A stretch of DNA of 64,000 nucleotides from positions 1,782 to 65,781 of the forward strand of contig JASHPZ010000022.1 of assembly GCA_030037815.1 (NCBI GenBank). Reading direction: 5' to 3'. Made by a program: the position numbers and the translations under genes. The notes under the pieces were generated by a model. The model made no database searches and was not told the DNA's origin. It saw only the letters and a program-made list of their open reading frames with translations. Below, piece by piece: positions 1,240 through 39,067 of this stretch. The DNA comes from Thermoplasmata archaeon (lineage in GTDB: Archaea; Thermoplasmatota; Thermoplasmata; Lutacidiplasmatales; UBA184). The first letter of the stretch is position 1. Each line of letters begins with the position of its first letter.

Positions 1240-1288
1240 CGGCGTTCCGAGCCCGGAGCCCCTAAGCGCCGGGCGTCCTGACCGGGGC

Positions 1289-3004: not shown

Positions 3005-3086
3005 ACCTTCGTTTGGCGTGCGACGACCTGCCATTCAGGTGGCGAGGCTAAATAGCGAGGTCCGGGTCGAACGCCCCGGCGGGACG

Positions 3087-3200: not shown

Positions 3201-3206
3201 GGGCCC

Positions 3207-7062: not shown

Positions 7063-7709
7063 GCGCCCGCCCGCCGTTTCCGCAACTTCCCCCCGGACCG
7101 AGCGAGCCGCGAGTCCTCCCGGCCCATACCCCGGGCGGGCACGTCCGCGCGAGCGCGGTGCTGCTCGTGCTGACGCTGCTCGTCTCCGGCTTCGCCTACC
7201 CGCTCTTCGTCACCGGGGTCGCGCAGCTGATCGACCCCTCGGCCGCGAACGGCTCGCTCCTCTACTACCAGAACGGGACGGTGGCGGGTTCGAGCCTCGT
7301 CGCCGAGAACCTGAGCGCGCCGTTCCTGTTCTGGGAGCGCCCGAGCCTGACCGATTACAACCTGCTGAACGGAACGGGCACGGCGCCCGGCCCGTCGGAC
7401 CCGGCGCTCCAAGCGCTCCTCAATGAAACTCTCAACTATACCCGGGAGTATGGGGAGTTCACCGTCAATGCCTCGATCCCGTTCTGGTTCGTCGCTCCGT
7501 CCGCGTCGGGCGTCGACCCGGACCTCGTGCCGGAAGCGGTCTTGATCCAGATCCCGCGGGTCGCGAACGCGACGAACCTCTCGGTCGCCAACCTGACCGC
7601 GCTCGTGAACGCGCACATCACCCAGCCGCTCATCCCCGACCTCGGCGTCCCGTACGTGGACGTCCTCCGCCTCGACCTCGCGCTCGTCGGGATCACGGGG
7701 GAGACGTAG
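7059..7709 (+). CDS. kdpC: Potassium-transporting ATPase subunit C.
   Basis: The GTG start overlaps the kdpB stop as GTGA. There is an N-terminal TM helix (AVLLVLTLLVSGFAYPLFVTGVAQ). A KdpC-like segment follows (GSSLVAENLSAPFLFWERPS). The frame is that of the tail of listed ORF 4992..7709. The start codon is uncertain; an alternative GTG lies about 100 nt downstream. Confidence 0.72.
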   Translation: MSARPPFPQLPPGPSEPRVLPAHTPGGHVRASAVLLVLTLLVSGFAYPLFVTGVAQLIDPSAANGSLLYYQNGTVAGSSLVAENLSAPFLFWERPSLTDYNLLNGTGTAPGPSDPALQALLNETLNYTREYGEFTVNASIPFWFVAPSASGVDPDLVPEAVLIQIPRVANATNLSVANLTALVNAHITQPLIPDLGVPYVDVLRLDLALVGITGET

Positions 7710-11371: not shown

Positions 11372-11434
11372 TTCCGGAACCTCGGGCCGCCGAACGGGCG
11401 GCCCTACATATTTCGGACTCCCGTCCGGGGCCGT

Positions 11435-11998
11435 CTAGCGGTGGCAGGCGTCCAGGAACCGGCGGAAGAACTCCCGGCCTCCCTCGGTGTGCTCGACCTC
11501 GGGGTGGAACTGGACGCCCCAGATCGGGCGGTCCGGGTGCGCCATCGCCTCGACCGGGCACGACGGCGAATGGGCGAGGACCGACCAGCCCGGGGGGGCG
11601 GTCGCGACCTGGTCGTTGTGGTTCCCCCAGACGCGGAAGGCGGGCGGGGTCCCGGCGAACAGCGGGTGGTCCCGACGGTCAACGGTCAACTCGACCGAGC
11701 CGAACTCGGCCCCGCCGTGGACGACCTTCCCTCCGAAGTGCCGGCCGAGGAACTGGTGCCCGACGCAGATGGCGAAGACGGGGAACGGCGCGCGGTCGAT
11801 CCACTCCCCGACCTGCCCCAAGGGGGTGTCGGTCCCTTCGAGGCTCAGCGCGCCGCCGGAGAGGACGACCCCGTCCGCGTCCAGCTGTTCGAACGGGGTG
11901 GTGTTCGGCACGATCCGGGTCTCCGCGCCCAGGTCCCGGAGCACCCGCCACTCGCGGTGGGTCCACTGGCCGCCGTTGTCGATGACGGGGACCTTCAC
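11435..11998 (-). CDS. guaAA: GMP synthase, glutamine amidotransferase subunit A (archaeal split GuaA).
   Basis: The N-terminus is MKVPVIDNGGQWTHREWRVLRDLGAE. Class I GATase motifs are present (ICVGHQF, HPE). The protein is 187 aa. The GTG start overlaps the upstream stop as GTGA. Confidence 0.85.
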   Translation of the reverse strand: MKVPVIDNGGQWTHREWRVLRDLGAETRIVPNTTPFEQLDADGVVLSGGALSLEGTDTPLGQVGEWIDRAPFPVFAICVGHQFLGRHFGGKVVHGGAEFGSVELTVDRRDHPLFAGTPPAFRVWGNHNDQVATAPPGWSVLAHSPSCPVEAMAHPDRPIWGVQFHPEVEHTEGGREFFRRFLDACHR

Positions 11999-12345
11999 GG
12001 CGCGCCCCCCTTCGGCCGGTTCGGCGGGTCGCGGCCGCCCGCGTCCAGCGCCTCGAGCCGCCGCCGCATCTCGGTGACGTCCGACCGCATCCGGAGCATC
12101 TCCTCCTCGAACGGGGAGAACCCGGACGGGGTCAGGAGCCGGTGGGAGAGGTAGATCCCGACGAAGATCGCCCCGACCAGGGCGAGGATCGTCGTGAAGA
12201 CGAGCGCGAAGACGAACGCGAGCGGGTCGGCGAGCGCCGTCGAGATCGGGAGGGTGAACAGGTGCGTGATCTCGGCGACCTCGATCACGATCAGGATCGC
12301 GATGACGAGGACCCAGACGAGGAACCCGAGCCGGTTCGCCTTCAC
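11995..12345 (-). CDS. Small membrane protein: two TM helices with a C-terminal cytoplasmic coiled-coil tail.
   Basis: A GTG start inside ORF 11995..12627 gives VKANRLGFLVWVLVIAILIVIEV...LVGAIFVGIYLSHRLL...EEEMLRMRSDVTEMRRRLEALD. The first 90 aa of the listed ORF are Arg-rich junk. The start overlaps the upstream stop as GTGA. Confidence 0.5.
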   Translation of the reverse strand: MKANRLGFLVWVLVIAILIVIEVAEITHLFTLPISTALADPLAFVFALVFTTILALVGAIFVGIYLSHRLLTPSGFSPFEEEMLRMRSDVTEMRRRLEALDAGGRDPPNRPKGGAP

Positions 12346-12896
12346 GGCAGCGGTCCTCCCGCGTTCGGCTCGAGCAGGATCGCGAGCGGTAGGCTCGAGA
12401 CCGCCACGGAGGAGGCGGCCGAGATGCCGGACGTCGCGGGGCTGACCGCGATGTTGAGCGTCTCGCCCGCCTGGCCGATCGCGCTCACGTAGAAGGCGAA
12501 CACGCCCGAGTACGTCGTGGTCGCCCCGTTGTCGGTGTACGTCGCGGAGGCGTAGACGGCGACCGGGTTGTAGAGCGAGAAGAGCACGCTCGCCAGCACG
12601 TTGGACGAGTTCTGCCAGTCGGTCCACGCGAGGTGGTCGGTCGGAAAGCCGCCCGACCAGACGAACCCGTAGGCGACGGCCGTCGAGATCGCGTCGAAGC
12701 GGACGGTCGCCCCCACGGCGTGCACGTAGAAGTTGGTCGTGTTGCCGCCCGCGACGCGGTCGACCACGAGCTCGGCCTGCGCCAAGTACGGGCTCGGGCC
12801 GTTCGAGATCAGGACGGGGGTGAGGACGATCAGCCCGACCAGGAGGAGCGCGACGCCGACCAGCGGCCAGGGAAACAGCGCACCGAGCCGATTCAC
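12342..12896 (-). CDS. Hypothetical secreted or membrane-anchored protein (N-terminal TM or signal anchor, Thr/Ser/Ala-rich ectodomain).
   Basis: The GTG start overlaps the UbiX stop. The N-terminus is VNRLGALFPWPLVGVALLLVGLIVLTPVL. It is followed by ...NTTNFYVHAVGATVRFDAIS...YTDNGATTTYSG.... Confidence 0.45.
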   Translation of the reverse strand: MNRLGALFPWPLVGVALLLVGLIVLTPVLISNGPSPYLAQAELVVDRVAGGNTTNFYVHAVGATVRFDAISTAVAYGFVWSGGFPTDHLAWTDWQNSSNVLASVLFSLYNPVAVYASATYTDNGATTTYSGVFAFYVSAIGQAGETLNIAVSPATSGISAASSVAVSSLPLAILLEPNAGGPLP

Positions 12897-13543
12897 GTCG
12901 CCTCCGACCCCCAGCCCCGGTAGAGGGTGTGGGGGACGCCGAGGTGGTCGAGGACCTTCCCCGCGAGGTAGTTCGTCACGTCGTCGATCGTCTTCGGGTG
13001 CAGGTAGTACGCGGGCGACGCCACGAGCACCACGGTCCCGAGGTCGCTCAGCGTCGCGAGGTGCCGCAAGAGCACGGCGGAGAGCGGCGTTTCGCGGGGA
13101 ACGACGACAAGGGGACGGCGTTCCTTCAGGTGGACCTGGGCGGCCCGCGTGAGCAGCGAGTCGCCGAGGCCGAGCGCCACCTTCGCCGCGGTGTTCGCGC
13201 TGCACGGCACGACCACCATCGCGCGGGTGGGGAACGATCCGCTCGCGATCGGGGCCGCGAGGTCGGCGTCGGAGTAGGCGCGGTCGGCGTACTGCGCGAG
13301 GGTGTCGGGGGCGAGTCCCGCCTCTTCCTGCAGCACCGCGCGCGCGCCGTTCGACACGACCAGCGCGACCGGTACGCGCGCGGCGCGCAGCGACTCGAGG
13401 ACCCGCACCGCGATGGGCGCCCCGCTCGCGCCCGACACGCCGACCACGACGGGAGGTTCGTTCGGCACGAGGGGAACCCCGGAGTTAAGTGCCCCAACGA
13501 CTCGTTCGATAAGACGGTTGGCGGAGCGCGGACGGTGGGGCAT
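12893..13543 (-). CDS. ubiX: Flavin prenyltransferase UbiX/PAD1 family.
   Basis: The C-terminal 216 aa of ORF 12893..14389 carry VVVGVSGASGAPIAVRVLESL and ...MVVVPCSANTAAKVALGLGDSLLTRAA. An alternative GTG start near 13468 would remove the overlap with the divergent thiolase start. Confidence 0.8.
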   Translation of the reverse strand: MPHRPRSANRLIERVVGALNSGVPLVPNEPPVVVGVSGASGAPIAVRVLESLRAARVPVALVVSNGARAVLQEEAGLAPDTLAQYADRAYSDADLAAPIASGSFPTRAMVVVPCSANTAAKVALGLGDSLLTRAAQVHLKERRPLVVVPRETPLSAVLLRHLATLSDLGTVVLVASPAYYLHPKTIDDVTNYLAGKVLDHLGVPHTLYRGWGSEAT

Positions 13544-14698
13544 CGGGCGGCGATCATCGGCGCGGGTCACACCCGATTCGGGGCCATGCCCGACGGGCCC
13601 CGGAGCCTCCTGCGCAGCGCCGTCGACCAGGCGTTCCAGAGCGTTGACCGCGGGCTCGACCGCGCGTCGGTCACGGACGCGTACCTCGCGAGCCTCGGGT
13701 TTGGCGGCTGGCAGATCGGGAACGCGTCGACCGTGATGGCCGAGGAGGCCGGGCTGACCGGCGTGCCGACGGTCCGGGTCGAGAACGCCTGCGCCTCGGG
13801 CGGGTTCGCGCTCCGCGCCGCGGTGAACGCGGTGCGCTCGGGCGCGACCGCGCTCGCGCTGGTCGTCGGGCTCGAGAAGATGACCGACCAGCCGGCGGCC
13901 CGCCGTCGGTACTGGCTCGGCGTCTCGGGCGACACCGAGTGGGAGCGGCTCGCGGGACTCACGTTCGCCGGCGTCTACGGGCTGATCGCCGCGCGGTACC
14001 TGGCCGAGCACCACGTCGGCCGCGAGGCGCTCAGCGAAGTCGCGCGGAAGAATCACGAGAACGGCGCCCTCAACCCCAACGCCCACTTCCAGAAGCGGGT
14101 CACCCGCGAAGACGTCGAGCGGGCGGCGAAGGTCGCGTCCCCCCTCGGCCTCTACGACTGTTGCCCGGTGAGCGACGGCGCGGCGGCGCTCTTGGTGGCC
14201 CCCGCCGAGGCGGCGCGGCAGTACACCGACACTCCCGTGTACGTCGACGGGATGGGCGCGGGCTCCGACTACCTCGCCGTGCAGGAGCGGGCCGACCTCA
14301 CGCGGTTCGCCGCGACGCGCTGGGCGATGGACGGGGCCCTCCACGAAGCGGGGGTCTCCCGCGGCGCGATCTCCTTCCTCGAGGTCCACGACTGCTTCAC
14401 GATCGCCGAGCTCCTCGCGCTCGAGGACTTGGGGTTCGCGGAACCGGGCGCGGCCGGGCCGCTCACGCTCTCCGGAGCCACGGCCCGGACCGGGCGGCTA
14501 CCGGTCAACCCCGACGGCGGGCTGAAGGCGAAAGGCCACCCGATCGGCGCGACGGGTGTCTCCCAGGCGTACGAAGTGTTCCAGCAGCTCCGACGCGCCG
14601 CCGGCGCGCGCCAGGTGCCGGGCGCCGAGCGGGCCCTCACCCACAACGTGGGCGGCGCCGGTGCGACCGCCTCGGTCGCCGTCTACTCGGTGGGGTGA
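13535..14698 (+). CDS. Thiolase-family protein (acetyl-CoA C-acetyltransferase-like; archaeal thiolase that pairs with a DUF35 protein).
   Basis: The N-terminus is GHRAAIIGAGHTRFG. The active-site region is VENACASGGFALRAA, and the C-terminal thiolase region includes ...GHPIGATGVSQ. The GTG start is inferred from the conserved N-terminus. Confidence 0.8.
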   Translation: MGHRAAIIGAGHTRFGAMPDGPRSLLRSAVDQAFQSVDRGLDRASVTDAYLASLGFGGWQIGNASTVMAEEAGLTGVPTVRVENACASGGFALRAAVNAVRSGATALALVVGLEKMTDQPAARRRYWLGVSGDTEWERLAGLTFAGVYGLIAARYLAEHHVGREALSEVARKNHENGALNPNAHFQKRVTREDVERAAKVASPLGLYDCCPVSDGAAALLVAPAEAARQYTDTPVYVDGMGAGSDYLAVQERADLTRFAATRWAMDGALHEAGVSRGAISFLEVHDCFTIAELLALEDLGFAEPGAAGPLTLSGATARTGRLPVNPDGGLKAKGHPIGATGVSQAYEVFQQLRRAAGARQVPGAERALTHNVGGAGATASVAVYSVG

Positions 14699-27786: not shown

Positions 27787-28404
27787 ATGCGCCGGTTCCT
27801 CCTCCTCGCGCACCGGGTCCCGGTCCGCGGCGGGTTCACGCTCAACGACCTCGCGGGCGGCGGCGGTCGGATGGACGAGGTCGCCCGGGCCGTCTCGACG
27901 GCGTTCACCCTCTCGAACGACCTCCGCCGCGACACCGAGATGACGGTCCTGTTCTCGGCCGAGCCCCCGCCGGCGGCCCGCAAGGTCCACCTGGTCGGGG
28001 CGCGGCTCCGCTACCTGAACCCGGACGAGCGGTCGACCGCCGCCCTGCTCAAGAACGCCCTCGTCCGGGCGGCCGACTTCCCGCGCGAGTTCGAGTCGTC
28101 CCCCGGGCTCCGCGTCGGTCCGGCCGACCCGCTCGACGAGCTGCGGGCGTTCCTGCGGGGACCCGGGACGGTCTGGCTGACCGAGTCGGGCCGCCCGGTC
28201 GCGGAGTGGGCGCCCCCCGGGTCGGACGTCGCCGCCGTGCTCTCGGACCCCGACGACCCGACCCCCGCGGAGGCCGAACTCCTCGGCGCGAGCGGGGTGC
28301 CGCGGTACTCGGTCGGCCCGCGATCGCTGCGCACGAGCCAGGTGGTCGACCTGTTCCACGCCGAGGTCGACCGCCGCGAGGCGGCCCGTCCCGTCACGCC
28401 GTGA
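27787..28404 (+). CDS. trmY: tRNA (pseudouridine54-N1)-methyltransferase TrmY (SPOUT, COG1901/DUF358).
   Basis: The N-terminus MRRFLLLAHRVPVRGGFTLNDLAGGGGRMDEVARAVSTAFTLSNDLRRD matches the TrmY consensus (M..F...a....t..f.L.DLpG..GRlDllcR....aFflS...RrD). Confidence 0.7.
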   Translation: MRRFLLLAHRVPVRGGFTLNDLAGGGGRMDEVARAVSTAFTLSNDLRRDTEMTVLFSAEPPPAARKVHLVGARLRYLNPDERSTAALLKNALVRAADFPREFESSPGLRVGPADPLDELRAFLRGPGTVWLTESGRPVAEWAPPGSDVAAVLSDPDDPTPAEAELLGASGVPRYSVGPRSLRTSQVVDLFHAEVDRREAARPVTP

Positions 28405-29392
28405 CGGCGTCCCGCACGGTCCGCGTGCGGAGCCCCCCGACCACGGCGGTCAGGTGGACGACCTCCCGCGGCTCGGGGCGGACCCGGGTCCCAAAGACGA
28501 GCCGCTCGGGCTCCCCGAGGCGCGTGCGCATCGCCCGCAGCACGCGGTCGAGGCAGCGGAGCGTGAAGTTCGACCCTCCCTCCAGGTGGACGAGGGCGCT
28601 CGTGCGGCCCGAGAAGTGGAAGTCGAGGAGCGAGCCCGACAGCGCCTCCTGGACGAGCCGCTCGGGCTCGGAGACGTGGTACTCCCCCGAGAGGAGGGTC
28701 GAGAGCCCCGAATCCCGGAGGTGGTTTTTGAGGGTCGCGAGGTCGACGTTCAACTGGGACGGGTGGTCGACCATGTCGACCAGGCTCGCGACCAGCGAGT
28801 GGAGGTAGGCGTTCCGCACCTGGAAGACGCGGTGGATCGGGAGCGACTCGAACCGGCGGAGCTTCTCGTTCGAAAGGGCGAGGAGGAGCCCCCCCATCTC
28901 CTCGAGCTCGTCCACGGTCGCGACCACGTTCTCCCGCCGGCTCGCGTTGGTCTCGAGCTCGACCTGGAACGGGAGGAAGACGACCGGGACGGGCAGCGTC
29001 TCGGTGCGGCGGAGCTGCCCCGCGAGGTACGGGAGCAGCGCGCTCCCGGTCCCGCCCCCGAGGCCAGCGAGCAGGAAGACGATCTCGAACGGCCGCAGCC
29101 GGCGGAGCAGCTCCTCGCGGCTCTCCTCGGCCGCCCGAAGGACCGCGTCGCGGTCGCCGCCGCTTCCGCGTCCGCGCAGTTCGCGGTGGGCGAGGAGGAT
29201 CCGCTCGTCCACGCCGACCCGCGCCAGGTGCTTCGCGTCCGTGTTGACGGCGATCGCGTGCGCGCCGGGGATCCCGAGCGCGAGGAGGTCCTGGACCGCC
29301 TCGCTGCCGGCACCGCCCAGGCCGACCACGGCGACCGACGGCGTGATCGCGAGCGAGGCCCACGCCTCGGGAGAATCGGGCTCGCCGGTCAT
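28394..29392 (-). CDS. FtsZ/tubulin-family GTPase. It is short (332 aa), divergent, has no C-terminal tail and has an altered T7 loop.
   Basis: The G-box is VAVVGLGGAGSEAV. A second motif is AVNTDAKHL. The tubulin signature is AGLGGGTGSA. The PVVFLPFQVE segment is present. The T7 loop reads QLNVDLATL where FtsZ has N.DFAD, so the second acidic residue is missing. Confidence 0.75.
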   Translation of the reverse strand: MTGEPDSPEAWASLAITPSVAVVGLGGAGSEAVQDLLALGIPGAHAIAVNTDAKHLARVGVDERILLAHRELRGRGSGGDRDAVLRAAEESREELLRRLRPFEIVFLLAGLGGGTGSALLPYLAGQLRRTETLPVPVVFLPFQVELETNASRRENVVATVDELEEMGGLLLALSNEKLRRFESLPIHRVFQVRNAYLHSLVASLVDMVDHPSQLNVDLATLKNHLRDSGLSTLLSGEYHVSEPERLVQEALSGSLLDFHFSGRTSALVHLEGGSNFTLRCLDRVLRAMRTRLGEPERLVFGTRVRPEPREVVHLTAVVGGLRTRTVRDAVTA

Positions 29393-29408
29393 CCGTCCCC
29401 CGTCCGCC

Positions 29409-29774
29409 CTACGGCGGGGGAGACCCTTCCGCGGCGACCGGCTCCCCTTCCCGGCGGTGCGTCCGGCCGGTCGGAGCGAGCTGCTCGATCCGGCTGCGGA
29501 TGTACTCGCGGACCGCGGAACGGACGGCGTCGTCCAGGCTGACGGACGCCCCCTCGCGGACGAACTCCTCGAGCCGGCTGTTGTCCTGCCGGGAGAGCTC
29601 GACCACGACCTTGCGGATGTTCTGCGGCGGCAGGTGGAGCTCGATGTACTGCTCGAGTCCCTCCCGGATCGTGTCGGAGATCGTCGGCGTGCCCTTCGCC
29701 TGCTGGATCTGCTTCAGCTTCTCGAGGAGATCCTGCGGGATCCGGACCGTCACCCGCTCCGACGTGTCGACCAT
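29409..29774 (-). CDS. Ribbon-helix-helix (CopG/Arc-like) DNA-binding protein, apparently with two RHH-like halves.
   Basis: The first half is VTVRIPQDLLEKLKQIQQAKG...REGLEQYIE. The second half is VVVELSRQDNSRLEEFVREG...VREYIRSR. It lies 16 nt upstream of the FtsZ-like gene. Confidence 0.7.
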   Translation of the reverse strand: MVDTSERVTVRIPQDLLEKLKQIQQAKGTPTISDTIREGLEQYIELHLPPQNIRKVVVELSRQDNSRLEEFVREGASVSLDDAVRSAVREYIRSRIEQLAPTGRTHRREGEPVAAEGSPPP

Positions 29775-29776
29775 GC

Positions 29777-29809
29777 TCGTCAGACAACACCCCTACCTTT
29801 GTCTGACGA
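29777..29809. promoter_or_regulatory. Perfect 11-bp inverted repeat TCGTCAGACAA-N11-TTGTCTGACGA. It sits immediately upstream of the RHH gene start and is a candidate auto-operator.
   Basis: Read from the sequence (ccATGctcgTCAGACAAcacccctacctTTGTCTGACGAac). RHH proteins typically bind such inverted repeats at their own promoters. Confidence 0.5.
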
Positions 29810-29952
29810 ACGACATATCGGGTTCCGACTATATCAAATCAGGGGAGCCGCGGGGCTTCGGGATTTAATCGGGCCCATCAGCCCTCGTGTGATTCTATTC
29901 GGGAGACTGTGATTTATTTGGCTACACCCGGCAACCGACAGTAGGGAGGCCG

Positions 29953-31029
29953 CTAGAGGGGTCTCCCCCCCTCAGTTGAGGGGGGTCTGGATGCCCTCAA
30001 TCTGAGTCCTACGTATCTGCGCAGGGCCAGTGCGATCGATAGTGCCATTTCTGCATCTGGTCGCTCTACGAGTTCATCCGGCCGCTCTGGGTGGGCACCA
30101 GCAGCGAGTAAGGACTTGACCGAACCTTGGTAAGCGAGCATGGCTTGAACTAAGTCCCCGAACGCATCAGTCATCTTCCGAGCTTTCTTCTCTGCTGATC
30201 CGAATCGATCCCCGAACGCGGAGTTCGAATTTGCCCCCAACTCGCGTTCCAAGGTCTCGACGACATCTCGGGACGCCGCTATCGAGAGCTTGTACTCCCC
30301 CGAAAGGAATTGCTTGACGGCATTTCTCAAGTAGACGTCCACTTGAGCAGAATTCTCAAAATTCTCTACGGGGACCTCATAGATCAACCAGTTACCATAC
30401 CCTAGGCCAGGGAGAAGTTTCTCAACCCATTTGCTCCTCTCGATTGTCAGAGTATGCATCCTTTCGTCGTGGCTCACGACTTCCAGGTCTTCCGTGTTGA
30501 ATGGGACCAGGTACGGCATCTTCCCCACGGGAAGGGCTCCCTCGTCGAACTCGTACCGGGCGATCCCCCCAAACCTGACTTGAATCCCAAAAGAGGGTTC
30601 GTTACCGGCTCGAGCGTCCTCGAGACCCTCGAGAACCGTTGGTTGGAGCGGAAACTGGAACTCGAACTCTACTTCGTAGCCCGCGTTGAGCACAAGGTTG
30701 GAAGTCCGAAGGGTGCGGGCGTACCCCTTCGCCACTAACGGCATGTTAACGAGGGACCCCTGAGGGCCAGCGGTCCACCTCAACCAGGCATCGGCCTGAA
30801 GGACCACAAACTGGACAGACTTGGCGTCGGTTCGCTCGATCTGAACGTTCGTACCTCCACCACTCGATGAAACTTGTACCAGGACTACCGCAGAGAGTAC
30901 TGGCATGAATCCGCTGTTGCCAGTGTCGAAGGACTTGAGCTCGAGATGGAAGAAACACTGCGGATTGAGTACCATCTTCCCACCCGCCGCTCGACCTGTA
31001 ACCTCTGCAGGCTTTGAGCCCCATCCCAT
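29953..31029 (-). CDS. Island hypothetical protein A.
   Basis: The ORF is 358 aa with protein-like composition. It lies downstream of the operon after a 455-nt gap. I recognise no family. Confidence 0.45.
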   Translation of the reverse strand: MGWGSKPAEVTGRAAGGKMVLNPQCFFHLELKSFDTGNSGFMPVLSAVVLVQVSSSGGGTNVQIERTDAKSVQFVVLQADAWLRWTAGPQGSLVNMPLVAKGYARTLRTSNLVLNAGYEVEFEFQFPLQPTVLEGLEDARAGNEPSFGIQVRFGGIARYEFDEGALPVGKMPYLVPFNTEDLEVVSHDERMHTLTIERSKWVEKLLPGLGYGNWLIYEVPVENFENSAQVDVYLRNAVKQFLSGEYKLSIAASRDVVETLERELGANSNSAFGDRFGSAEKKARKMTDAFGDLVQAMLAYQGSVKSLLAAGAHPERPDELVERPDAEMALSIALALRRYVGLRLRASRPPSTEGGRPL

Positions 31030-31484
31030 ACCGAGTTCCGCTAGTTTGTGCCCAGCCTATCGGAGCTATGGAAGCGCGAGCCGACCCCAGTCCGTTGGTA
31101 AAGTTAGACCATTTGCGTCCTCCTTACGGTTGAACTGCAGAAGTTTGCCTAACGTCATGGCCGAATGGACCGCCAGATGCCGATGCTCAGAGACCTCCCG
31201 ATGCTCGGGCCACGGGTGTGACAGGCATACAATTCAGAGGATCGACCTTAGCGGCAGGTTGTCCGTTCGACCCTCCCAATGCATCTCAGGTGGCCCTCGG
31301 CTGCTACTTCGGAATCCTGCACCGCAGGGCATGAGTTCCCCGCGCGTGCGCCTGCGAGAAGACAGCGGTCGGAATCGAGTCGGCATATTCCTTAGCGAGC
31401 CCCGGGTAGTTGCGGGAGCACCGGGCCGCAAGGCCTCCTTGAGCTCAGTGTCCGTTCATGAACCGGAACGTGGTGGAACCCACC

Positions 31485-32264
31485 CTACGGCCGCCCAGGC
31501 CTCGCCGTGGGATACCAGAGCGGTGCCTGGATGGGTCGGCTTGTGCCCAGCCGTTTCCCGATTGGATAGCAAGGCATCACGGGCATCTTTTCTACGATTG
31601 CAACCATTTCGGGCGGCCAACCTCCTTCGACAATGGTCGGGAAGTGATCGCTAAGTATCCCGTATACGACCGCCGGCAGATCGAGCGGGGGCGTTGGAAC
31701 CCGCGGGACTCCAGATTTTATTTGCGACTGCCGCTGAACGCATCTAGTACCGATCGCCTGCTCGGAAATACCGCCGAAGTCTATCTGTGCATGGAAGAGC
31801 GGATGATCTCTTTGGAAGTGCTTGTCGGGGTCGAATGCCATGTCGTAGTGGAGCCCCGCAAGGACTTGGGATGGTGCCCAGCGGGCCGGTGGTAGGTCAG
31901 GGCGGTCCGTGTCCGTTCGACGATAGTGGACCCGAACGACGGACGCTATGACCTCATAATTTCCGCCAGTCGCACCCCGTGTGGACTGTCTTATCTCCTG
32001 CTCAAATTGGATCGAAATCTCGCATGTTGACTTGCCGAGGCTCTGCGGCTTGATGGGGACCTGCAAGAAATGCAACGCGCAATCTCCTCCGCACGTAGCG
32101 GTTAGACAACCGACTCTTCCCTCCGGGTCGAAGTCTACTTGAATTTCGCCTGGTGTCGAGGGTCGAGCGTTCGGCAGCAATCCGCTGAGTCGTGTCCAAA
32201 ACTCTGAGTAACGTGAGAGGAGGACTGGCTTGTCCCTGAGACTCAGCCCGCCCGTCCTAAACAT
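31485..32264 (-). CDS. Island hypothetical protein B, His-rich (HYDMAFDPDKHFQRDHPLFH). It may be a metal-dependent enzyme.
   Basis: The ORF is 259 aa and lies 16 nt downstream of the receiver-like gene, so it is probably co-transcribed. Confidence 0.45.
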   Translation of the reverse strand: MFRTGGLSLRDKPVLLSRYSEFWTRLSGLLPNARPSTPGEIQVDFDPEGRVGCLTATCGGDCALHFLQVPIKPQSLGKSTCEISIQFEQEIRQSTRGATGGNYEVIASVVRVHYRRTDTDRPDLPPARWAPSQVLAGLHYDMAFDPDKHFQRDHPLFHAQIDFGGISEQAIGTRCVQRQSQIKSGVPRVPTPPLDLPAVVYGILSDHFPTIVEGGWPPEMVAIVEKMPVMPCYPIGKRLGTSRPIQAPLWYPTARPGRP

Positions 32265-32280
32265 GAACTCAATGACCTTT

Positions 32281-33357
32281 TCACAACGTGAGCCACGGGG
32301 GGAGCCGGGCGAACTCTCGTTTTCTAATTCGCGAGCGGTCCGCGCCCAACGGTATCAGCGCCATCGGACGTACCGAGTGTCTCTCGCAAACTGGTCGCTC
32401 GGACACGATACAAAAGTACCCCGCCCCTTCATGACCCTCCGCGCAACGACAGTGCGAGATTCCCCCTAACTTGCTCTGCGCGAGGTCGTATCCGGTGCCG
32501 TGGGTCGACGACGCCGGACTCCCGGTGGCGATGATCCGATCTAACTCGCAGGTCCACCAGTAGGGCCCTGTTTCTGAGAAGGGTCCCCGATAGACCGCGT
32601 CATCGAACAATCCCCGAACTTCAGCTCGTTCATTGAACTGTTGGTCGTCGATGTCAAGGTAGGATGCGGCCGCGGTCGCATTTAGAAGAACTCCCGCGAA
32701 ATGTAGCAGCTCGTTTACAACCCAGTATCCAAGTGTCGAAGCGACGATTCGAGTCTTCCGAGCCGAATCTAGCTTCCTGCTCGCCCTCACCACGGCGACG
32801 GGAGTCTTTGGGCCCCAGCGATACCGTTGCAGTGCGAGCGCTGCTTCGGCAGGGGCCTTCAACACGCTCTTGGCAAACTGATCCATCCTCTGAGTGGACG
32901 AGAGGTTCGAATTAGCGACCAGTTGGTCGAATCCCGAGGCATACGAAATCAAGAGTTGGGGTACACGTGACGACTGCTCAGCGACGTCAATCGATATCTC
33001 CCGATCTCGACTCCTTAGAAGATATTCAGTCCTCGTCGCCGCCCCAGGTTGAAAAGTATAGACGCAGACCGGGACGCCGATTTGCTGGCAGACCGTCTGC
33101 ACGCCGTCCCGGTCAACCAGCGGGTCGTACATTGTGAGGTCATAGTCCAACACGGCGAGACTCGCCACTCTGGGGGAGCTTAGAAAACGTCGAATCTGAC
33201 TGCGAAGTCGCATATCATAGGACTGCGCCGGTTCGTTTGGCCGTCTGGGCGGGGGGACGAAGCGAGCGGCGTTGGGCGTCGTCGCAACTTGAGATTCCAG
33301 CTGCTCGTGTAGCTCTTCATAGGGCTGCGGATCATCTTCAAAGAAAACTATGCGCAT
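32281..33357 (-). CDS. Receiver-like (REC) domain protein with a C-terminal Cys/His-rich effector domain of unknown function.
   Basis: The start is taken at the internal ATG (MRIVFFEDDP...). REC-like landmarks are the acidic pair (EDD), a candidate phospho-acceptor Asp (LAVLDYDL) and a Thr (VCVYT), with a loop insertion. The C-terminal cluster is HCRCAEGHEGAGYFCIVSERPVCERH. It lies 10 nt downstream of the GHKL/HK gene. Confidence 0.5.
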   Translation of the reverse strand: MRIVFFEDDPQPYEELHEQLESQVATTPNAARFVPPPRRPNEPAQSYDMRLRSQIRRFLSSPRVASLAVLDYDLTMYDPLVDRDGVQTVCQQIGVPVCVYTFQPGAATRTEYLLRSRDREISIDVAEQSSRVPQLLISYASGFDQLVANSNLSSTQRMDQFAKSVLKAPAEAALALQRYRWGPKTPVAVVRASRKLDSARKTRIVASTLGYWVVNELLHFAGVLLNATAAASYLDIDDQQFNERAEVRGLFDDAVYRGPFSETGPYWWTCELDRIIATGSPASSTHGTGYDLAQSKLGGISHCRCAEGHEGAGYFCIVSERPVCERHSVRPMALIPLGADRSRIRKREFARLPPWLTL

Positions 33358-33367
33358 ATCCTCTGAC

Positions 33368-35623
33368 CTAAAGTGGGAAGGCAACCTCAAATGCCGTGAC
33401 AAAGCCCTCAGGAGGTGCAGCGACCCTAATCTTCCCACCGACGGCCGTAACAGCACGCTTTACGATGAACAGCCCGAGCCCCAACCCGCCGGCTAGTGGT
33501 CCTGCAAGCTCTCGGGTTGTGGATACAAATGGGTCGAAAATGTAGTCCTTGATTTCCGGCGGTATTCCTGGTCCGGTGTCAGCGACACGAAGGATGTGCT
33601 CACCCTCAGTGTTCCGGGCCTCAATTCGGATCACGCGCGTGCCATCCTCTTTTGAGTGCATTAGTGCCTTGAGGGCATTCGTATAGAGGTTCAGAACGAC
33701 TGCCGAGTAGAGACCCCCCCAGACCTTCGGCGGGCGCATCCCTTCCTCCACCTTGTTCTCGGACTGAATCCTGCGCTTCGTAGCGATGTCCGAGAAGAGT
33801 CCCACTACGTGTTCAACAAGATCATACGGGCTGAACGGCTCTGGACCGACATCTGGTAGCCTGTGGAGGAATGTCTGCGAGTAGTCCATAAATGATCTGA
33901 GGCGATAAATCGAATCCTCCACCGACGTTCGGGCTTTCTCCATAGCAGCAGCGCGTCCGTCTGACTCGGCTCGTTTAAGCGCACTGACGGAATCCCTCAA
34001 AGAAGTCATCAAGGTCTTGGTCTCATGGGTCATGAAACTCGCGAGAACTCCGAGAAGTGAAGCAGACTCGACGGCAGCCAGCGCCTTTGACCTGGCCTCG
34101 TCGGTCCGGGTGTAACGTTCGGCAAGTTCCCTGAATGCGGCAAGAACCACGGTTTTTTCCGACGGGACAATGTCTCTACTCCGCTGAACTCGGAGGGCGG
34201 CGGCCGCGAGCGATTCACGGAAATCCTTGGCCTCAGTTTCGGCCTCTTCTCGGTCAATCTCTTGAACCCCACGGGCGTCGACAACTGCAAGGAGTTCGAC
34301 GGCGGTGATTACGAGTTGACGGAGTAGTCTGAACCCCTCGTTTTGGACAAGCCCCTGCCGGTCCATGGAGGGTTGAATTCTATCGATCTGGACGGCTCCC
34401 ACGGTCGACCGCTCACGAAAAGTTTCGATCGAGACCCAGCCGAGGACTTGGTGGTTCGCCGGGACGCGAAGATACGGGCTGTAACGGCCATCCGTCTCAA
34501 AAGTCGAGTCGGCGAGTAACTCGTCAGTTACAGGCGAGACCCATCGACGGAGGTTTCTTGCCATTCGGCCGGAAAGGTAGAGCCAGTCATCCTCGGGTTC
34601 CCCGTAGGGCTTAACCCGGATGCCCCGATCAACCAATCTAACGCCGCCCTGCTCCTGGAGGTAGGCGTGCGCCCGCCTCCCATCTGCGGTCGTGAGTCCA
34701 GAGAACACACCCGAGCGGTGCGGATAGAAACCTATCTCGCCTTGGAGGGGCCCAATCAACGCCTCCAATTTCGGAATTGTAGCAGTCCACTTGGAACTGA
34801 ACCGAGTCTCTTGGGTTTCCGGATTGCGGTAAGTAACCCGGTAGGTCAGCTTGCCGCCCTTGCTTGAGAACCGAACTCTGGCCAGCCATCGGTCCACTAT
34901 CTCACTGGTGGCGGTCTGAAGTTCAGTGCCGGATCCTGGCTCTCCGAAATACACTCGTAGGCCTGGGTCCTCTTCGGTCGACGAGGACGCTCGAGCTAGC
35001 CATTCTGGAATCGCTGGAGTGACTACGTCCAAAACCTGATTTGTGACTCTAGCCAACCTGGCCGAGTCCCAGTCGTCGGCGAGTTTTCCAATGCTCAGGT
35101 GGGTGTAACTCGCGTTGTCGGGCCGTGGCGAAAGAATACGGTAGTGTACCTTGATGTCCTTCAGCTCACGTCCCGGTTTGAATTTGGCCCAATCGAAATC
35201 CGAAGACAACCGAAGACGCTTCCCCGCCTCCCCAGAATCCGCTGTTGTGTCCAAGTTGAGAGTCAGGCCGAGACGCCGGACAGCAAAGCGTCCGACTCCC
35301 TTCGACCCGGTGAGTGGGCGTTTGAAGATTCGAGACGCGTCCGAGCCAAGTTTTGACGTGGTTCCGATGCGCATCCATCCAGAGAGAAATTCCCGTTCAT
35401 TCATCCCGGTCCCGTTGTCTTGTATGTGCAACTTTGGCGACGCACCCCCCTCGAGCCACAGATAGACTTCCGTCGCATCGGCATCAAACGAATTCTTAAT
35501 CAGCTCAGAAAGCGCGGTGTTTGGATCGACAATCAGTCGCTCTCCGAGCTCAGACAGAATTTGCGCGTCACCTGAGAACGTCGCGTCAGCTTCCCGTAGA
35601 GGGGGGCCCTCCGACTGAGCCAT
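33368..35623 (-). CDS. Dual-GHKL protein: an N-terminal MORC/MutL-like GHKL ATPase plus a C-terminal histidine kinase (HisKA + HATPase_c).
   Basis: N-terminal GHKL motifs are ELIKNSFDADATEV (motif I), IQDNGTGMNEREF (motif II) and GSKGVGRFAVRRLG (motif III). The C-terminal kinase has an H-box (SFMTHETKTLMTSL), an N-box (VVLNLYTNALKA), G1 (VADTGPGIPPE), an F-box (IFDPF) and G2 (GGLGLGLFIV). The protein is 751 aa. Confidence 0.8.
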   Translation of the reverse strand: MAQSEGPPLREADATFSGDAQILSELGERLIVDPNTALSELIKNSFDADATEVYLWLEGGASPKLHIQDNGTGMNEREFLSGWMRIGTTSKLGSDASRIFKRPLTGSKGVGRFAVRRLGLTLNLDTTADSGEAGKRLRLSSDFDWAKFKPGRELKDIKVHYRILSPRPDNASYTHLSIGKLADDWDSARLARVTNQVLDVVTPAIPEWLARASSSTEEDPGLRVYFGEPGSGTELQTATSEIVDRWLARVRFSSKGGKLTYRVTYRNPETQETRFSSKWTATIPKLEALIGPLQGEIGFYPHRSGVFSGLTTADGRRAHAYLQEQGGVRLVDRGIRVKPYGEPEDDWLYLSGRMARNLRRWVSPVTDELLADSTFETDGRYSPYLRVPANHQVLGWVSIETFRERSTVGAVQIDRIQPSMDRQGLVQNEGFRLLRQLVITAVELLAVVDARGVQEIDREEAETEAKDFRESLAAAALRVQRSRDIVPSEKTVVLAAFRELAERYTRTDEARSKALAAVESASLLGVLASFMTHETKTLMTSLRDSVSALKRAESDGRAAAMEKARTSVEDSIYRLRSFMDYSQTFLHRLPDVGPEPFSPYDLVEHVVGLFSDIATKRRIQSENKVEEGMRPPKVWGGLYSAVVLNLYTNALKALMHSKEDGTRVIRIEARNTEGEHILRVADTGPGIPPEIKDYIFDPFVSTTRELAGPLAGGLGLGLFIVKRAVTAVGGKIRVAAPPEGFVTAFEVAFPL

Positions 35624-37018
35624 CTATCGGCCCGCGGATCGTGGCGACTCGGTATAGGCCGATAGAATTGAGTTCATTTGGCCCACTTCGATGCGTCTCA
35701 TGCCCCCGACCCAGGGGACGCTACCGCGAGCGAAGTTCCAAGACTTAAGGTAGTTCACCAGGCGGCTAGGGGACTGCCTCGGAGTCCCAATGTGTATCGC
35801 GTGGACGGTACCGAGGTGGACAACCCCGCTCGGATTGCTCACAACTTTGAGGCCGCGAGAACTCGAGTACGCGCTGGAATAGAGGACTTTCCCGGGGATC
35901 GGCACGGTGTAGTCGTACCAAACCGCTCGAGCCCCGCAAGTACTGTTCTCTTGAATCGATTTGGGCACCGAATCCAACCATGCCCGTACGGCAGAATCGA
36001 GCCCTGGCGAGTCCGTCCTCAAGAGCCAACACCGAAGTCCGGCACGGACGTACCTAGCCGTGAATGCAGCTCGAGTGAGAGTGGTGAAGGTGTTTGGGAG
36101 TGGCCGAAGGGTGCCCACCGCTGGCCAAACCGCGTCAAGCGGAATTCGCGCCTCAATACGTTCCGCCTCTGTCAAGACGAACCAGTTTCGTGAGCCTGGG
36201 CTCAGCCCTCTGAAGGCATACAGGTGATCCGATCGTGGCGAGTGCCCTCTCGTGGAAATCAATCGCCTCGAGCCGCCACCCTTTCTTGGGCGAAGGTCGG
36301 CGCGCAGTTTCACCAAGCTGACAGTGGAGCATGACTCGTTTTTTTCGATCAGAGTGATCCCTGCGTTCGCCCTCTTTCCGATGTCAAAATCCACCGTGGA
36401 AGGGAGCTCGAATAGTGTAACCTTCCACTTGTGTTTCAGAATGTAACTCCTTAGTGCTCGGGTAGCAGCTTTCTGGATCCAGTCAGACGGTAAGACCATG
36501 CAGACTCTCCCATCTGCCGACGTCCTCAGAGTTGCGAACCAAAGAAAGTAGCAGGCGAGGTTTCCCAGCGGGCCAGGGTCAACCCCAGCTTCCTGTTTTA
36601 TCAATCGACGTGCGCGATCACGCCACAGCGAGTCCAAGTCTTGCACTCGCATGAAGGGCGGATTTCCTATTGCTAATTCGAACTCGCCCTTCGCTTCCAG
36701 GGCGTCCCGACACCGAATCTTTGCATTCCGAGGAAGAGTGAGGGTTCGTACTTTGGGGTCCAGCTCATACCCTAGGTACGACCCATACTTTCCGTAGAGC
36801 GCGAATCGGCCGTCCCCCGCACCCAGATCGAGGACAGTGTGCGGCTTGAACCGACCTTTCGTACACAGCCGCCAAGCCGCCGAGACTACGGGATATGGAG
36901 TCACAACCTGGCACCGTCGAAGGCTCGGCAAGTTACCCCGCGTCCCGGGTCGGCTGGAAACCTGTCCGGGAATAGTCTTCACCGGAAATGGTCGGGGGTT
37001 AGACTTTGAACTGATCAT
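35624..37018 (-). CDS. N6-adenine-type DNA methyltransferase (gamma-like order: motif I precedes NPPF) with a large C-terminal presumptive target-recognition region.
   Basis: Motif I is VLDLGAGDGRF. Motif IV is IGNPPF. The protein is 464 aa. Its stop abuts the GHKL/HK start. Confidence 0.78.
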   Translation of the reverse strand: MISSKSNPRPFPVKTIPGQVSSRPGTRGNLPSLRRCQVVTPYPVVSAAWRLCTKGRFKPHTVLDLGAGDGRFALYGKYGSYLGYELDPKVRTLTLPRNAKIRCRDALEAKGEFELAIGNPPFMRVQDLDSLWRDRARRLIKQEAGVDPGPLGNLACYFLWFATLRTSADGRVCMVLPSDWIQKAATRALRSYILKHKWKVTLFELPSTVDFDIGKRANAGITLIEKNESCSTVSLVKLRADLRPRKGGGSRRLISTRGHSPRSDHLYAFRGLSPGSRNWFVLTEAERIEARIPLDAVWPAVGTLRPLPNTFTTLTRAAFTARYVRAGLRCWLLRTDSPGLDSAVRAWLDSVPKSIQENSTCGARAVWYDYTVPIPGKVLYSSAYSSSRGLKVVSNPSGVVHLGTVHAIHIGTPRQSPSRLVNYLKSWNFARGSVPWVGGMRRIEVGQMNSILSAYTESPRSAGR

Positions 37019-37168
37019 GAGCCCCGAAACCCCAAGACGCGCATCTACGTAGACTTACCGACGTCGACGTCGGGTCTCCCCTGTGAACTACATGAGCTGC
37101 CCCTCGGAACCGGAGGGTGGGCGCCCCGCAATGGGGGCCGCGGGTAGACGCGCCGCTCTGCCTGTTTG

Positions 37169-37513
37169 CTATTTACGGTGTGGGAAGTCGATTGCCTTCA
37201 GCGCCTGATTTCTGACCGATTCGGGAACGGAGCCGTCGCCCCCGATTTCTGCGAGTAGTTGGAGTCCTGCTGCTCCAGTCTTCGCCAGGGCTGTGACCGC
37301 GTGTTCTTTGACGCTGGACGGAGATTGAGGATCCCTGATGGTCTTCGATAGCGACTTTGCCAACTTGGCGGCCTCGTCAGTCTGCACCCAAGCCTCGATT
37401 GCCTCGACCAAGCCCTTGCTGAGGTCTCCCTTCCGGCCGCCGAACCGCTGGGCCACGGTAATCCGCAGCCGTTTGGCCAGTGCGTCTGGGATAACCGCGT
37501 CAATTCGAGCCAT
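37169..37513 (-). CDS. RHH (CopG/MetJ/Arc-like) transcriptional regulator with a C-terminal HEAT-like helical repeat. It is the first gene of the island operon.
   Basis: The start is taken at the internal ATG (MARIDAVIPDALAKRLRITVAQRFGGRKGDLSKGLVEAIEAW is an RHH). The longer listed start (37579) would overlap the divergent transposase start. Confidence 0.55.
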   Translation of the reverse strand: MARIDAVIPDALAKRLRITVAQRFGGRKGDLSKGLVEAIEAWVQTDEAAKLAKSLSKTIRDPQSPSSVKEHAVTALAKTGAAGLQLLAEIGGDGSVPESVRNQALKAIDFPHRK

Positions 37514-37550
37514 TGGTAATCTCTCAGAGTCACCCCATAGATGAACATTT

Positions 37551-38957
37551 GTGTCTACCCACTTATCCGAGTTGCTCATATACTTCCGTGATATGTGTGT
37601 AAGTGGTTACACACGCAATATGACGAAACTCGGCGAGGGCGATATGGTTGCACGCCTGCGGGCGTTCGAGCTCATCGCTGCTAACGAAGAGCCGATCATT
37701 CCTGTCAGCCGGTCGACCTACAGGGTGCACTCCCAATCGCGGGACAGCTACTACACGATTTCTCGTAAGCAGGGTCACTGGTGGTGTACCTGCGACGGGT
37801 TTGACGCTGCCCGGGGGCGGTGCAAACACATCTGGGCGGTCGAGATTTGGCGGGAGCCGGCGAAACACTATGTTCAGAACTCGTCCGAATCGTCTTCCCA
37901 CAAGAGTTACGGTCAGGATTGGCCCGCATACGACGCCGGCCAGCAGGATGAACACCGACTCTTCGATCGCCTACTTTGGGGACTCCTCGAAGACGTAGTC
38001 GAGCCCGTCCGCCCAGTAGGCAAGCGCGGGCGGCCTCCAATCCCGCTCCGTGTTCAGCTGCTTCACTCGATCCGGAAAGTTCACCTGAACAAGGCAGCGC
38101 GGGAGGTCAAGGGACTGCTCGACACGATCTATGCGGGCGGGCTTGGAATCGTGGAAGGGATACCAAACTACGCGACCCCATCCCGCCTTTTCAACCAGCC
38201 CTTCGTCTCAGAGATTCTTGTTGGCTTGATAGAGCGCTCTAGCCTTCCCCTGAAGGACATCGAGGAGACTCGAACTGTCGCGATCGACTCATCAGGTTTC
38301 TGCCTCACCTGCATGAGTGCCTATTGCACCGAGAAGCACGATCCGACTCGGAAGCACAAGTGGATCAAGGCTCACGTCATCATCGGGGTGAAAACTCACA
38401 TCATACTGGACGTCCGGATCACAGATGAACACGGTGCGGACTGCCCGCAGCTTATCCCGATGCTGGAGGACCTGGTTCGCCGAGGATTCCGACCCAGGAA
38501 AGTGCTCGGCGACAAGGCCTACCTGTCACGGGAGAACTACCGGGTCGCCCGGACCATCGGAGCCGACGCTTACTTTCCGTTCAAGCCGAACAGTGTCGGA
38601 ACCTCGAAAGGGAGCTGCGAGTGGGCCCGAAAGTACCACCAATTCCAACTAAAACGCGAGGAGTTCGACCACGAGTATCGCCAACGGAGCAACGTCGAGG
38701 CGGTCTTCTCCGCCATAAAGAGAAAGCTTGGTGAGCCCCTCTTCTCGAAGAACGTCCTTTCACAATTCAACGAGCTCCTCGCCAAGCTGCTCGCCTACAA
38801 CATCGGTATCGTAATCCACGAGATGCACGAGCATGGGATTGATCCCGAGGTCAACTGCCCACCGGATCCCCCCTATGTCCCACCTGTCCCGGTCTTCGAG
38901 CCCGCTCCCTGTGATTCAAATGGGGAGGTTGTGATTGAATTCGAGGTAGTATCCTAG
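37551..38957 (+). CDS. Transposase: an N-terminal SWIM zinc finger plus a DDE domain of the IS4/IS5 superfamily.
   Basis: The SWIM motif is WWCTCDGFDAARGRCKH. The DDE residues lie in AIDSSGF and LGDKAY. HEYRQRSNVEAVFSAIK matches the Y-(2)-R-(3)-E-(6)-K signature. The start is GTG. Confidence 0.8.
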   Translation: MSTHLSELLIYFRDMCVSGYTRNMTKLGEGDMVARLRAFELIAANEEPIIPVSRSTYRVHSQSRDSYYTISRKQGHWWCTCDGFDAARGRCKHIWAVEIWREPAKHYVQNSSESSSHKSYGQDWPAYDAGQQDEHRLFDRLLWGLLEDVVEPVRPVGKRGRPPIPLRVQLLHSIRKVHLNKAAREVKGLLDTIYAGGLGIVEGIPNYATPSRLFNQPFVSEILVGLIERSSLPLKDIEETRTVAIDSSGFCLTCMSAYCTEKHDPTRKHKWIKAHVIIGVKTHIILDVRITDEHGADCPQLIPMLEDLVRRGFRPRKVLGDKAYLSRENYRVARTIGADAYFPFKPNSVGTSKGSCEWARKYHQFQLKREEFDHEYRQRSNVEAVFSAIKRKLGEPLFSKNVLSQFNELLAKLLAYNIGIVIHEMHEHGIDPEVNCPPDPPYVPPVPVFEPAPCDSNGEVVIEFEVVS

Positions 38958-39067
38958 TAAAATCCCAAAGCCGGAGCCGCGGATGCGGGGGCGTCGCGCG
39001 CTCGTCGCCATCCGTACGGATCGACCCGAGCGGGGCCGCGTCCGCCGGGCCGTCCGTCTCTCGGGCG

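Follow-up and report, generated by a model that had tools for sequence, protein, structure and literature searches.

In Detocs and similar two-component defence systems, a cytoplasmic histidine kinase senses infection and passes phosphate to a receiver protein that controls an effector. Soluble histidine kinases that carry a second ATPase domain ahead of the kinase core, with the domain order HATPase_c_3, HEF_HK and HATPase_c, were described in bacteria by Bellieny-Rabelo, Pretorius and Moleleki in a purely computational study (Genome Biol Evol, 2021; PMC8011034). The great majority of them (91.6%) are linked to a gene for a REC-like protein (Response_reg_2), and they are enriched near restriction-modification (R-M) genes, the linkage being mainly to C5-cytosine methylases, Vsr and HNH_2 (PMC8011034). 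They are related to the paraMORC ATPases, and the genes were first noticed through their induction in Pectobacterium during plant infection (PMC8011034). The paraMORC1-5 proteins are in turn fused to or partnered with nucleases, TIR domains and helicases in operons of the R-M type (Iyer, Abhiman and Aravind, 2008; PMC2292703). Described here is a kinase of this general kind from an archaeon, encoded at positions 33368-35623 of a 64,000-nucleotide stretch of Thermoplasmata DNA (assembly GCA_030037815.1, contig JASHPZ010000022.1, positions 1,782 to 65,781; hereafter the window), together with the four-gene operon of which it is a part.

The experimentally validated member of the group is Ambrosia, an anti-phage system of Pseudomonas aeruginosa that consists of AbrR (XRE regulator), AbrA (N6 methyltransferase), AbrB (kinase/HSP90-like ATPase), AbrC (receiver protein) and AbrD (HNH nuclease), encoded in that order (van den Berg et al., 2025; bioRxiv 10.1101/2025.09.30.679545). 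Every one of the genes is required, the single substitutions N40A in AbrB, D60A in AbrC and H60A in AbrD each abolish defence, and the cassette is transcriptionally induced on infection (van den Berg et al., 2025). The original prediction for the window kinase, which was made from the DNA alone, had been accompanied by the remark that its author was aware of no characterised example of such a fusion, and a lack of precedent does not hold: the architecture was published in 2021 (PMC8011034) and the homologue AbrB is essential to a validated system. What is new is the operon variant, with two partner proteins to which no function can be assigned.

The open reading frame (ORF) of the kinase lies where the original prediction had placed it, at 33368-35623, and only the strand had to be corrected, to minus. 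It has 751 codons, an ATG start and no internal stops, and the plus-strand frame across the same positions is full of stops. The claim that this is one polypeptide with two GHKL modules is borne out by the intact ORF and by two independent significant Pfam matches, and all of the motifs that had been quoted in its support are present in the translation. A split of two genes by an overlooked frameshift or stop, which had been named as a possible flaw, is ruled out by the unbroken frame and by the top 120 database relatives, which are 656-760 amino acids (aa) long and contain both Pfam domains in all but one case. The protein is soluble, with no transmembrane segment (maximum Kyte-Doolittle 19-residue window 1.59), and it is virtually certain that it joins a MORC/MutL-type ATPase and a histidine-kinase core in one chain.

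The N-terminal module is a GHKL (Bergerat) ATPase (aa 1-215; 34979-35623, minus strand, as are all of the kinase segments below), and contains ELIKNSFDADATEV at aa 40-53, IQDNGTGMNEREF at aa 67-79 and GSKGVGRFAVRRLG at aa 106-119. Its ATPase motifs are E40-x3-N44-x2-D47 (I), D69-x-G71-x-x-G73 (II) and G106-x-K108-G109-x-G111 (III), with G173-T174 in the region of motif IV. Pfam HATPase_c_3 (PF13589) matches aa 34-133 with an E value of 3.6e-19 (69.6 bits, where the cutoff is 25), and a PDB sequence search finds the N-domains of MutL, PMS2 and MLH1 for aa 30-133 (MutL, E 3e-5), so that chance similarity of the N-terminal motifs is ruled out. All statements about invariance in the kinase rest on 21 aligned homologues (31-50% identity), in which E40, N44, D47, D69, G71, G73, G106, K108, G109 and G111 are invariant and G173 and T174 nearly so.

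The C-terminal part is a complete kinase core, as had been proposed. Residues 429-590 (33854-34339) comprise a coiled-coil helix (429-481) and then the DHp hairpin (487-554 and 559-587), where the phospho-acceptor pair H533-E534 stands within the H-box MTHETKTLMTSL (aa 531-542). The CA domain (aa 591-751 with the stop codon; 33368-33853) has N645 in its N box (VVLNLYTNALKA, aa 642-653), a G1 box D682-x-G-x-G (VADTGPGIP, aa 680-688), an F box IFDPF and a G2 box G713-x-G-x-G (GGLGLGLFIV, aa 713-722). Pfam HATPase_c (PF02518) matches aa 642-750 (E 1.4e-24), histidine kinases are found with the C-terminus in the PDB sequence search, and NCBIfam histidine-kinase models (AtoS, ZraS and others; best E 2.5e-21) align to aa ~492-750 and hence cover the DHp region in addition to the CA domain. 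Residues H533-E534, N645, N649, K652, D682, G684, G686, G713, G715 and G717 are invariant. Invariance thus extends to the catalytic residues of the two modules, and both ATP sites are predicted to be active.

An AlphaFold2 model of the kinase, for which the alignment of 21 sequences was used, reaches a mean pLDDT of 75. It consists of a GHKL fold that extends as far as about aa 215, an alpha/beta domain at about aa 220-400 (blocks mostly at pLDDT 75-93, with dips of 58-73), the long helix, the helical hairpin bearing H533, and a CA domain at aa 599-750. The DHp-CA cores of DivL, ThkA and HK853 are matched structurally with scores of 19.6-19.8 over aligned lengths of 144-197. The remaining matches are to MORC3 (18.6; aligned length 282), MORC2 (15.8; 288), the MutL N-terminal domain (15.8; 269), SMCHD1 (15.0; 298) and Hsp90/TRAP1 (15.9; 318), which, together with the HATPase_c_3 and MutL sequence matches, substantiates the assignment of the N-terminal module to the MORC/MutL type. 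Because these alignments extend beyond the Bergerat fold alone, the middle region (aa 216-428; 34340-34978) is read, in the model, as an S5-type transducer. The original prediction had left about 300 residues between the two modules unassigned and had advised a search there for an S5-fold transducer; an S5-type domain is what the predicted structure contains, and with the coiled-coil it accounts for the stretch. As modelled, the N-terminal ~430 residues thus form a complete MORC/MutL-type ATPase module that is linked by a coiled-coil to the kinase core. Invariant positions in the transducer are D219-P-G221, P301-x-R303-x-G305, P339-Y-G341, D346-W347, R359, Q392 and R422, and of these R303 may be the basic residue in contact with the gamma-phosphate of ATP. 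MORC proteins proper are set apart from paraMORC by a MORC-specific GhXhhpXXRhl motif in the S5 domain.

Four closely packed genes on the minus strand form an operon, in which the kinase comes second. The first gene (35624-37018) encodes a 464-aa Eco57I-like N6-adenine DNA methyltransferase (Pfam Eco57I, E 3.9e-10; PADLOC MTase_II, E 4e-14) with motif I DLGAGDG and motif IV GNPPF, and its TAG stop abuts the ATG of the kinase. The third gene (32281-33357), whose ATG lies 10 nucleotides (nt) past the kinase stop with GAGGA in front, encodes a 358-aa response-regulator-like protein that begins MRIVFFEDDP. The alignment of its family has an acidic pair near D8, an invariant D71, and P96 followed by Ser/Thr and then FD..K, and the family profile matches about 50 PDB chains with receiver domains (best E 2.3e-6), which identifies the N-terminal domain, at the level of sequence, as a divergent receiver. 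The C-terminal ~210 aa have a conserved PG.L..LAA.LGI, Y256.G258.F and an invariant W268, with a Cys/His cluster in the window subfamily; this domain has no Pfam or PDB sequence match and is not a known transcription-factor domain by sequence. The fourth gene (31485-32264), which starts 16 nt beyond the third, encodes a 259-aa protein that is the candidate effector. In its family H139, H154-P155, H158, R188, P190 and D195 are invariant and D141 and Q160 nearly so. The family has 970 cluster representatives among 1.84 billion proteins, and nearly all are standalone proteins of ~240 aa. Two apparent fusions to the receiver protein, P0448 (596 aa) and P0369 (376 aa), were considered as clues to its function and set aside, as they look like frameshift read-throughs; the sequence at both junctions is of low complexity and rich in Arg and Ser.

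Relatives of the kinase are present in at least 576 species genomes, in a scan that took one genome per species. They are distributed among Proteobacteria, Bacteroidota, Cyanobacteria, Chloroflexota, Planctomycetota, lineages of the candidate phyla radiation, Campylobacter and Staphylococcus, and among the archaea Halostagnicola, Nitrosopumilus and Methanoperedens. The gene surroundings were compared in the 80 best loci, that is, those closest to the window kinase, by iterative hidden Markov model (HMM) searches of their ORFs. The 358-aa receiver family is encoded immediately downstream of the kinase in 55-70 of the 80, the 259-aa family comes next after the receiver gene in 44 (about 54 with relaxed thresholds), and 59 have an Eco57I-like methyltransferase gene directly next to the kinase cassette, on one side or the other. 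The exact four-gene cassette is carried by the closest relatives (43-51% identity) and is also found in Pseudomonas sp. B21-051, and a Halomicrobium plasmid encodes the kinase together with an N6 methylase and a protein annotated as a response regulator. The window subtype is the commonest among the 80 sampled loci. Searches of a phage collection and a plasmid collection returned no records and only 8 records of relatives, respectively.

Some gene of ~200-270 aa occupies the third position after the kinase in nearly every one of the 80 loci, and in variant loci this is a metallo-beta-lactamase-fold protein (three members) or an HNH protein, from which it follows that the sensor-relay core of the family is constant and its effector slot modular. 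On the basis of its place in that slot and of its His/Asp constellation, the 259-aa protein is probably a metal-dependent hydrolase or nuclease. It was considered as an AbrD-like HNH nuclease and this was rejected, as it has no similarity to AbrD and none of 32 family members examined has an HNH Pfam match. The three metallo-beta-lactamase Pfam matches are presumably the third genes of loci from Anabaena, Scytonema and Nostoc (L067, L069 and L079, at about 10000-13750), where the kinase is ~685 aa, the receiver protein ~230 aa and the third gene ~338 aa. Among the other loci, seven have a post-kinase gene of 392-458 aa that is unrecognised by the HMM of the 358-aa family (L015, L022, L057, L059, L062, L064 and L066), followed on the same strand in L062 and L066 by a gene of ~206-219 aa, and a further seven (L014, L034, L043, L063, L071, L072 and L074) have partners of 411-449 aa with a weak match to that family. 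In an Acinetobacter baumannii genome (L084, 5671-11231; GCA_016477765.1) the four-gene cassette lies in a prophage, where it directly follows a cI-like repressor gene and cro-like genes and precedes a gene for a Sak-type recombinase. On the metagenomic contig that carries a relative of 43% identity (P0006; locus L089), the cassette is directly preceded by a type I R-M system (1-4593) made up of an HsdS fragment, a 394-aa gene and a 1019-aa HsdR. Four ORFs in the flanks of L002-L060 match PADLOC mad3 (best E 8.3e-56).

The window kinase shares with the HEF_HK kinases the domain order HATPase_c_3, DHp with His-Glu, and HATPase_c, its solubility, a directly adjacent gene for a REC-like protein and the linkage to a DNA methyltransferase or R-M genes. 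The two sets differ in that the window subtype has an Eco57I-like N6 methylase and an additional fourth gene, in place of the C5-cytosine methylase, Vsr and HNH_2 linkage of the published set, and in that relatives of the window kinase are also found in archaea, whereas the published survey was bacterial. Like the MORC, MutL and paraMORC ATPases, the kinase has an N-terminal GHKL fold with its ATP-binding motifs followed by an S5-type transducer, and it too belongs to an R-M-type operon; where the C-terminal fusions or partners of paraMORC1-5 are nucleases, TIR domains and helicases, however, the fusion in the window is to a histidine-kinase core. Compared with Detocs-type systems, the window has a MORC-like ATPase as sensor, an added methyltransferase and another effector.

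Similarity to Ambrosia is closest in the kinase. For these comparisons the Ambrosia sequences were taken from Table S1 of van den Berg et al. (bioRxiv 10.1101/2025.09.30.679545), and only the first 399 aa of AbrB were used. AbrB (747 aa, HATPase_c_3 and HATPase_c) is 27% identical to the window kinase over 366 aa (BLASTP, E 2e-29), N40 of AbrB aligns with N44, and the N-terminal part of AbrB matches the kinase in all 80 loci. Ambrosia and the window also share the gene order methyltransferase, kinase, receiver protein and small fourth protein, and with it an R-M-like cassette that includes a His-Asp relay. AbrC can be aligned with the 358-aa family in the receiver region only (hhalign E 7.7e-5, probability 62%, 90 columns). 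Ambrosia has a HipB-like XRE regulator, AbrR, whereas the window cassette has only a weak, non-conserved ribbon-helix-helix (RHH)-like ORF. The full Ambrosia-like gene set occurs in 2 of the 80 loci (L050 and L065), against 44-54 for the window type.

No PADLOC model of a defence system other than R-M matches the kinase, the regulator or the fourth protein. Membership of MADS was considered and rejected, as the methyltransferase has only a weak match to mad2 (E 2.7e-8) and the other three proteins match none of the models mad1-mad8. The architecture is also undescribed in the BREX-diversity, DefensePredictor and WASA Vibrio papers.

Taken together, the operon is a horizontally acquired, translationally coupled member of the paraMORC-kinase (HEF_HK/AbrB) family of R-M-linked two-component modules, in which a GHKL and S5 ATPase takes the place of a ligand-binding domain as the input module. 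There is good reason to assign the operon a role in defence. The fuller reading that we favour, with rather less assurance, is that the kinase and its partners constitute a cytoplasmic two-component defence module in which a MORC-like ATPase serves as the sensor and a His-Asp relay leads to the effector. Any specific step of that relay can be put forward only tentatively. The N-terminal ATPase would bind ATP and dimerise or clamp in response to a cue of infection, most plausibly DNA. The S5 transducer and the coiled-coil would then pass the change to the DHp domain, where the CA domain would phosphorylate H533; the residues for this are in place and the coupling is conjectural. The phosphoryl group would move to D71 of the adjacent receiver protein, a partnership for which adjacency and conserved residues are the evidence, and the phosphorylated regulator would switch the output, which could be induction of the cassette as in Ambrosia, direct activation of the fourth protein, or both. 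The methyltransferase would mark DNA, which may serve either to protect the cell's own DNA or to create the target.

Several observations weigh against this interpretation. On the side of the kinase family, HEF_HK (PF19191) has no match in the window kinase at E <= 0.1, and is matched by 6 of the 21 aligned homologues. Pfam does not recognise the regulator of the window, and Response_reg_2 (PF19192), which marks the partners of the HEF_HK kinases, is found in none of 32 members of the receiver family examined; the family nevertheless belongs to the receiver superfamily by its profile and by D71. For the fourth protein, searches of Pfam and of PDB sequences give no match, and it has no recognisable fold and no nuclease signature; its structural model is poor (pLDDT 62.7) with no significant fold matches. 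On the side of Ambrosia, AbrA has no significant BLASTP similarity to the window methyltransferase (best E 0.7) and is of a different N6 family; AbrC is a 209-aa receiver protein, unlike the 358-aa regulator with its unrelated C-terminal domain; and AbrD is unrelated to the profile of the 259-aa family. Since the partners are not homologous to AbrA, the AbrC C-terminus and AbrD, the function of Ambrosia is not simply transferable to the window, and it is to that minor subtype that experimental tests of the kinase family are confined. In Ambrosia itself, moreover, phage grown on a host that expresses AbrA stays sensitive, so that methylation by AbrA is unprotective (bioRxiv 10.1101/2025.09.30.679545). 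DNA binding by the MORC-like module, and with it the conversion of DNA sensing or clamping into phosphotransfer that the original prediction envisaged, is something we infer. Lastly, 90 flanking ORFs match many PADLOC models (methyltransferases, mad2/mad3, AriA, DruM, PglX and DrmMII), which is suggestive of a defence-island setting, this being an uncontrolled count.

A stronger form of the defence reading holds that the window subtype is a distinct immune system, in which a MORC-type clamp senses foreign DNA and the phosphorelay activates an effector of novel fold post-translationally; we regard this as unlikely. If true, it would be the first direct link of a MORC-family ATPase to phosphotransfer signalling, in bacteria and archaea.

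Of the other explanations, the one that survives best, which we nonetheless think unlikely, is that the operon is a signal-transducing R-M system. The MORC-like clamp would read methylation, unmethylated foreign DNA would drive a relay from kinase to receiver to the fourth protein acting as a nuclease, with no transcription step, and the methyltransferase would protect self DNA. The abutment of the methyltransferase and kinase genes and their linkage in 59 of the 80 loci are as expected for such a system, as are the R-M nucleases and helicases that typically partner paraMORC ATPases (PMC2292703), the resemblance of the N-terminal module to restriction enzymes of the BbrUII/HgiDII type, and the HNH or metallo-beta-lactamase-fold proteins in the effector slot of other subtypes. 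The behaviour of Ambrosia is not, given the sensitivity of phage from the AbrA-expressing host and the transcriptional induction of the cassette; nor was a DNA-binding or methyl-reading domain identified in the kinase, and the fourth protein is not recognisably a nuclease.

It is less probable still that this is an ordinary regulatory two-component system that controls the adjacent methyltransferase, for epigenetic or stress purposes, and has no role in defence. Databases label the relatives as 'sensor histidine kinase' or 'ATP-binding protein', their first notice came from induction during plant infection by Pectobacterium, and the window cassette has no recognisable restriction nuclease, all of which would suit a regulator. 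However, the family is scattered over bacteria and archaea in a patchy pattern suggestive of transfer, copies are found on a low-GC island, in a prophage and beside R-M genes, the homologous AbrB is required for defence against phage, and the output domain of the receiver protein matches no transcription-factor domain known by sequence.

The resemblance to restriction enzymes could also be taken at face value, the kinase being then a GHKL-type restriction enzyme like BbrUII or HgiDII, with its C-terminal kinase a degenerate structural remnant and no phosphorelay. The N-terminal ~120 residues do match PADLOC REase_II (E 4e-7) and NCBIfam restrict_BbrUII (E 6.8e-15), but the latter model, NF050001, scores 54.6 bits against a cutoff of 550 and covers aa 19-137, the GHKL part, only. 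The protein has no nuclease domain, the His-Glu of the H-box and the N, G1 and G2 boxes are invariant in what would be a remnant, and a receiver partner with an invariant Asp follows it, which makes this explanation highly improbable. The weakest, an artefact in which the genes of a paraMORC ATPase and a histidine kinase were fused by a frameshift or a lost stop, is already refuted for practical purposes by the uninterrupted frame, by an independent Logan assembly that has the identical protein, by the same two-module layout in hundreds of relatives (730-760 aa), and by the continuous coiled-coil linker of the model.

MORC ATPases are important regulators of eukaryotic chromatin, and the read-out of their ATP-driven clamping is poorly understood. 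In the proteins considered here a module of the MORC type is hard-wired to the best-understood signalling chemistry of bacteria, and therefore its read-out could be measured as phosphorylation. How the ATPase gates the kinase is one testable question. Another concerns the roles of the two partner proteins without an assignable fold or function. To establish what the output domain of the receiver protein and the 259-aa protein do would define a new class of effector and account for the coupling of a methyltransferase to a two-component relay.

The operon lies on a low-GC island of ~9 kb (29700-39000), which has about 57% G+C in composition profiles, compared with about 72% in the flanks. At one edge of the island is a gene for a 468-aa DDE transposase of the IS5 family (37551-38957, plus strand; Pfam DDE_Tnp_1, NCBIfam IS5), which has a GTG start and a match to a SWIM zinc finger at the N-terminus, and which overlaps by 29 nt, on the opposite strand, the start of the 136-aa RHH-like ORF (37169-37579, minus strand). 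The latter matches Pfam RHH_6 under the curated cutoff (E 3.7e-4), is called as a gene on the Logan contig and may be a local regulator; none of the 80 loci has a homologue, and none is recognisable by position in the closest relatives. Also within the island, 455 nt past the downstream end of the operon, is an orphan gene of 358 aa (29953-31029, minus strand), for which Pfam, NCBIfam and PADLOC give no matches. It has a homologue in none of the 80 loci and is alone in its 90%-identity cluster. As neither the RHH-like ORF nor the orphan gene is conserved elsewhere, they were not counted as part of the core. Repeats found when the ends of the island were sought resemble chance matches, promoter-like sites in its region are no commoner than in shuffled sequence, and 9 terminator-like sites were found where 5.5 +/- 2.5 were expected, none of them at the operon boundary. 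An Rfam scan found one tRNA only.

Beside the island, at 28394-29774 (minus strand), stand a divergent FtsZ-like gene of 332 aa, which scores 177.8 bits with TIGR00065 (cutoff 295.2), and immediately upstream of it a 121-aa ribbon-helix-helix gene whose product is weakly similar to CdrS/aCcr1, far under the cutoffs. An archaeal-style cell-division pair was considered for these two genes. A haloarchaeal host, to which the CdrS-like match beside the FtsZ-like gene and the haloarchaeal relatives of the kinase had pointed, was rejected: the protein composition is unlike that of a haloarchaeon, the flanking proteins having a pI of 5.5-6.1 and only 11-14% Asp and Glu, and the NCBIfam scores fall far short of their cutoffs. 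Farther away, a 905-aa ORF (4992-7709, plus strand) matches KdpC in its last ~190 residues only and is probably an over-extended ORF inside a kdp potassium-transport operon.

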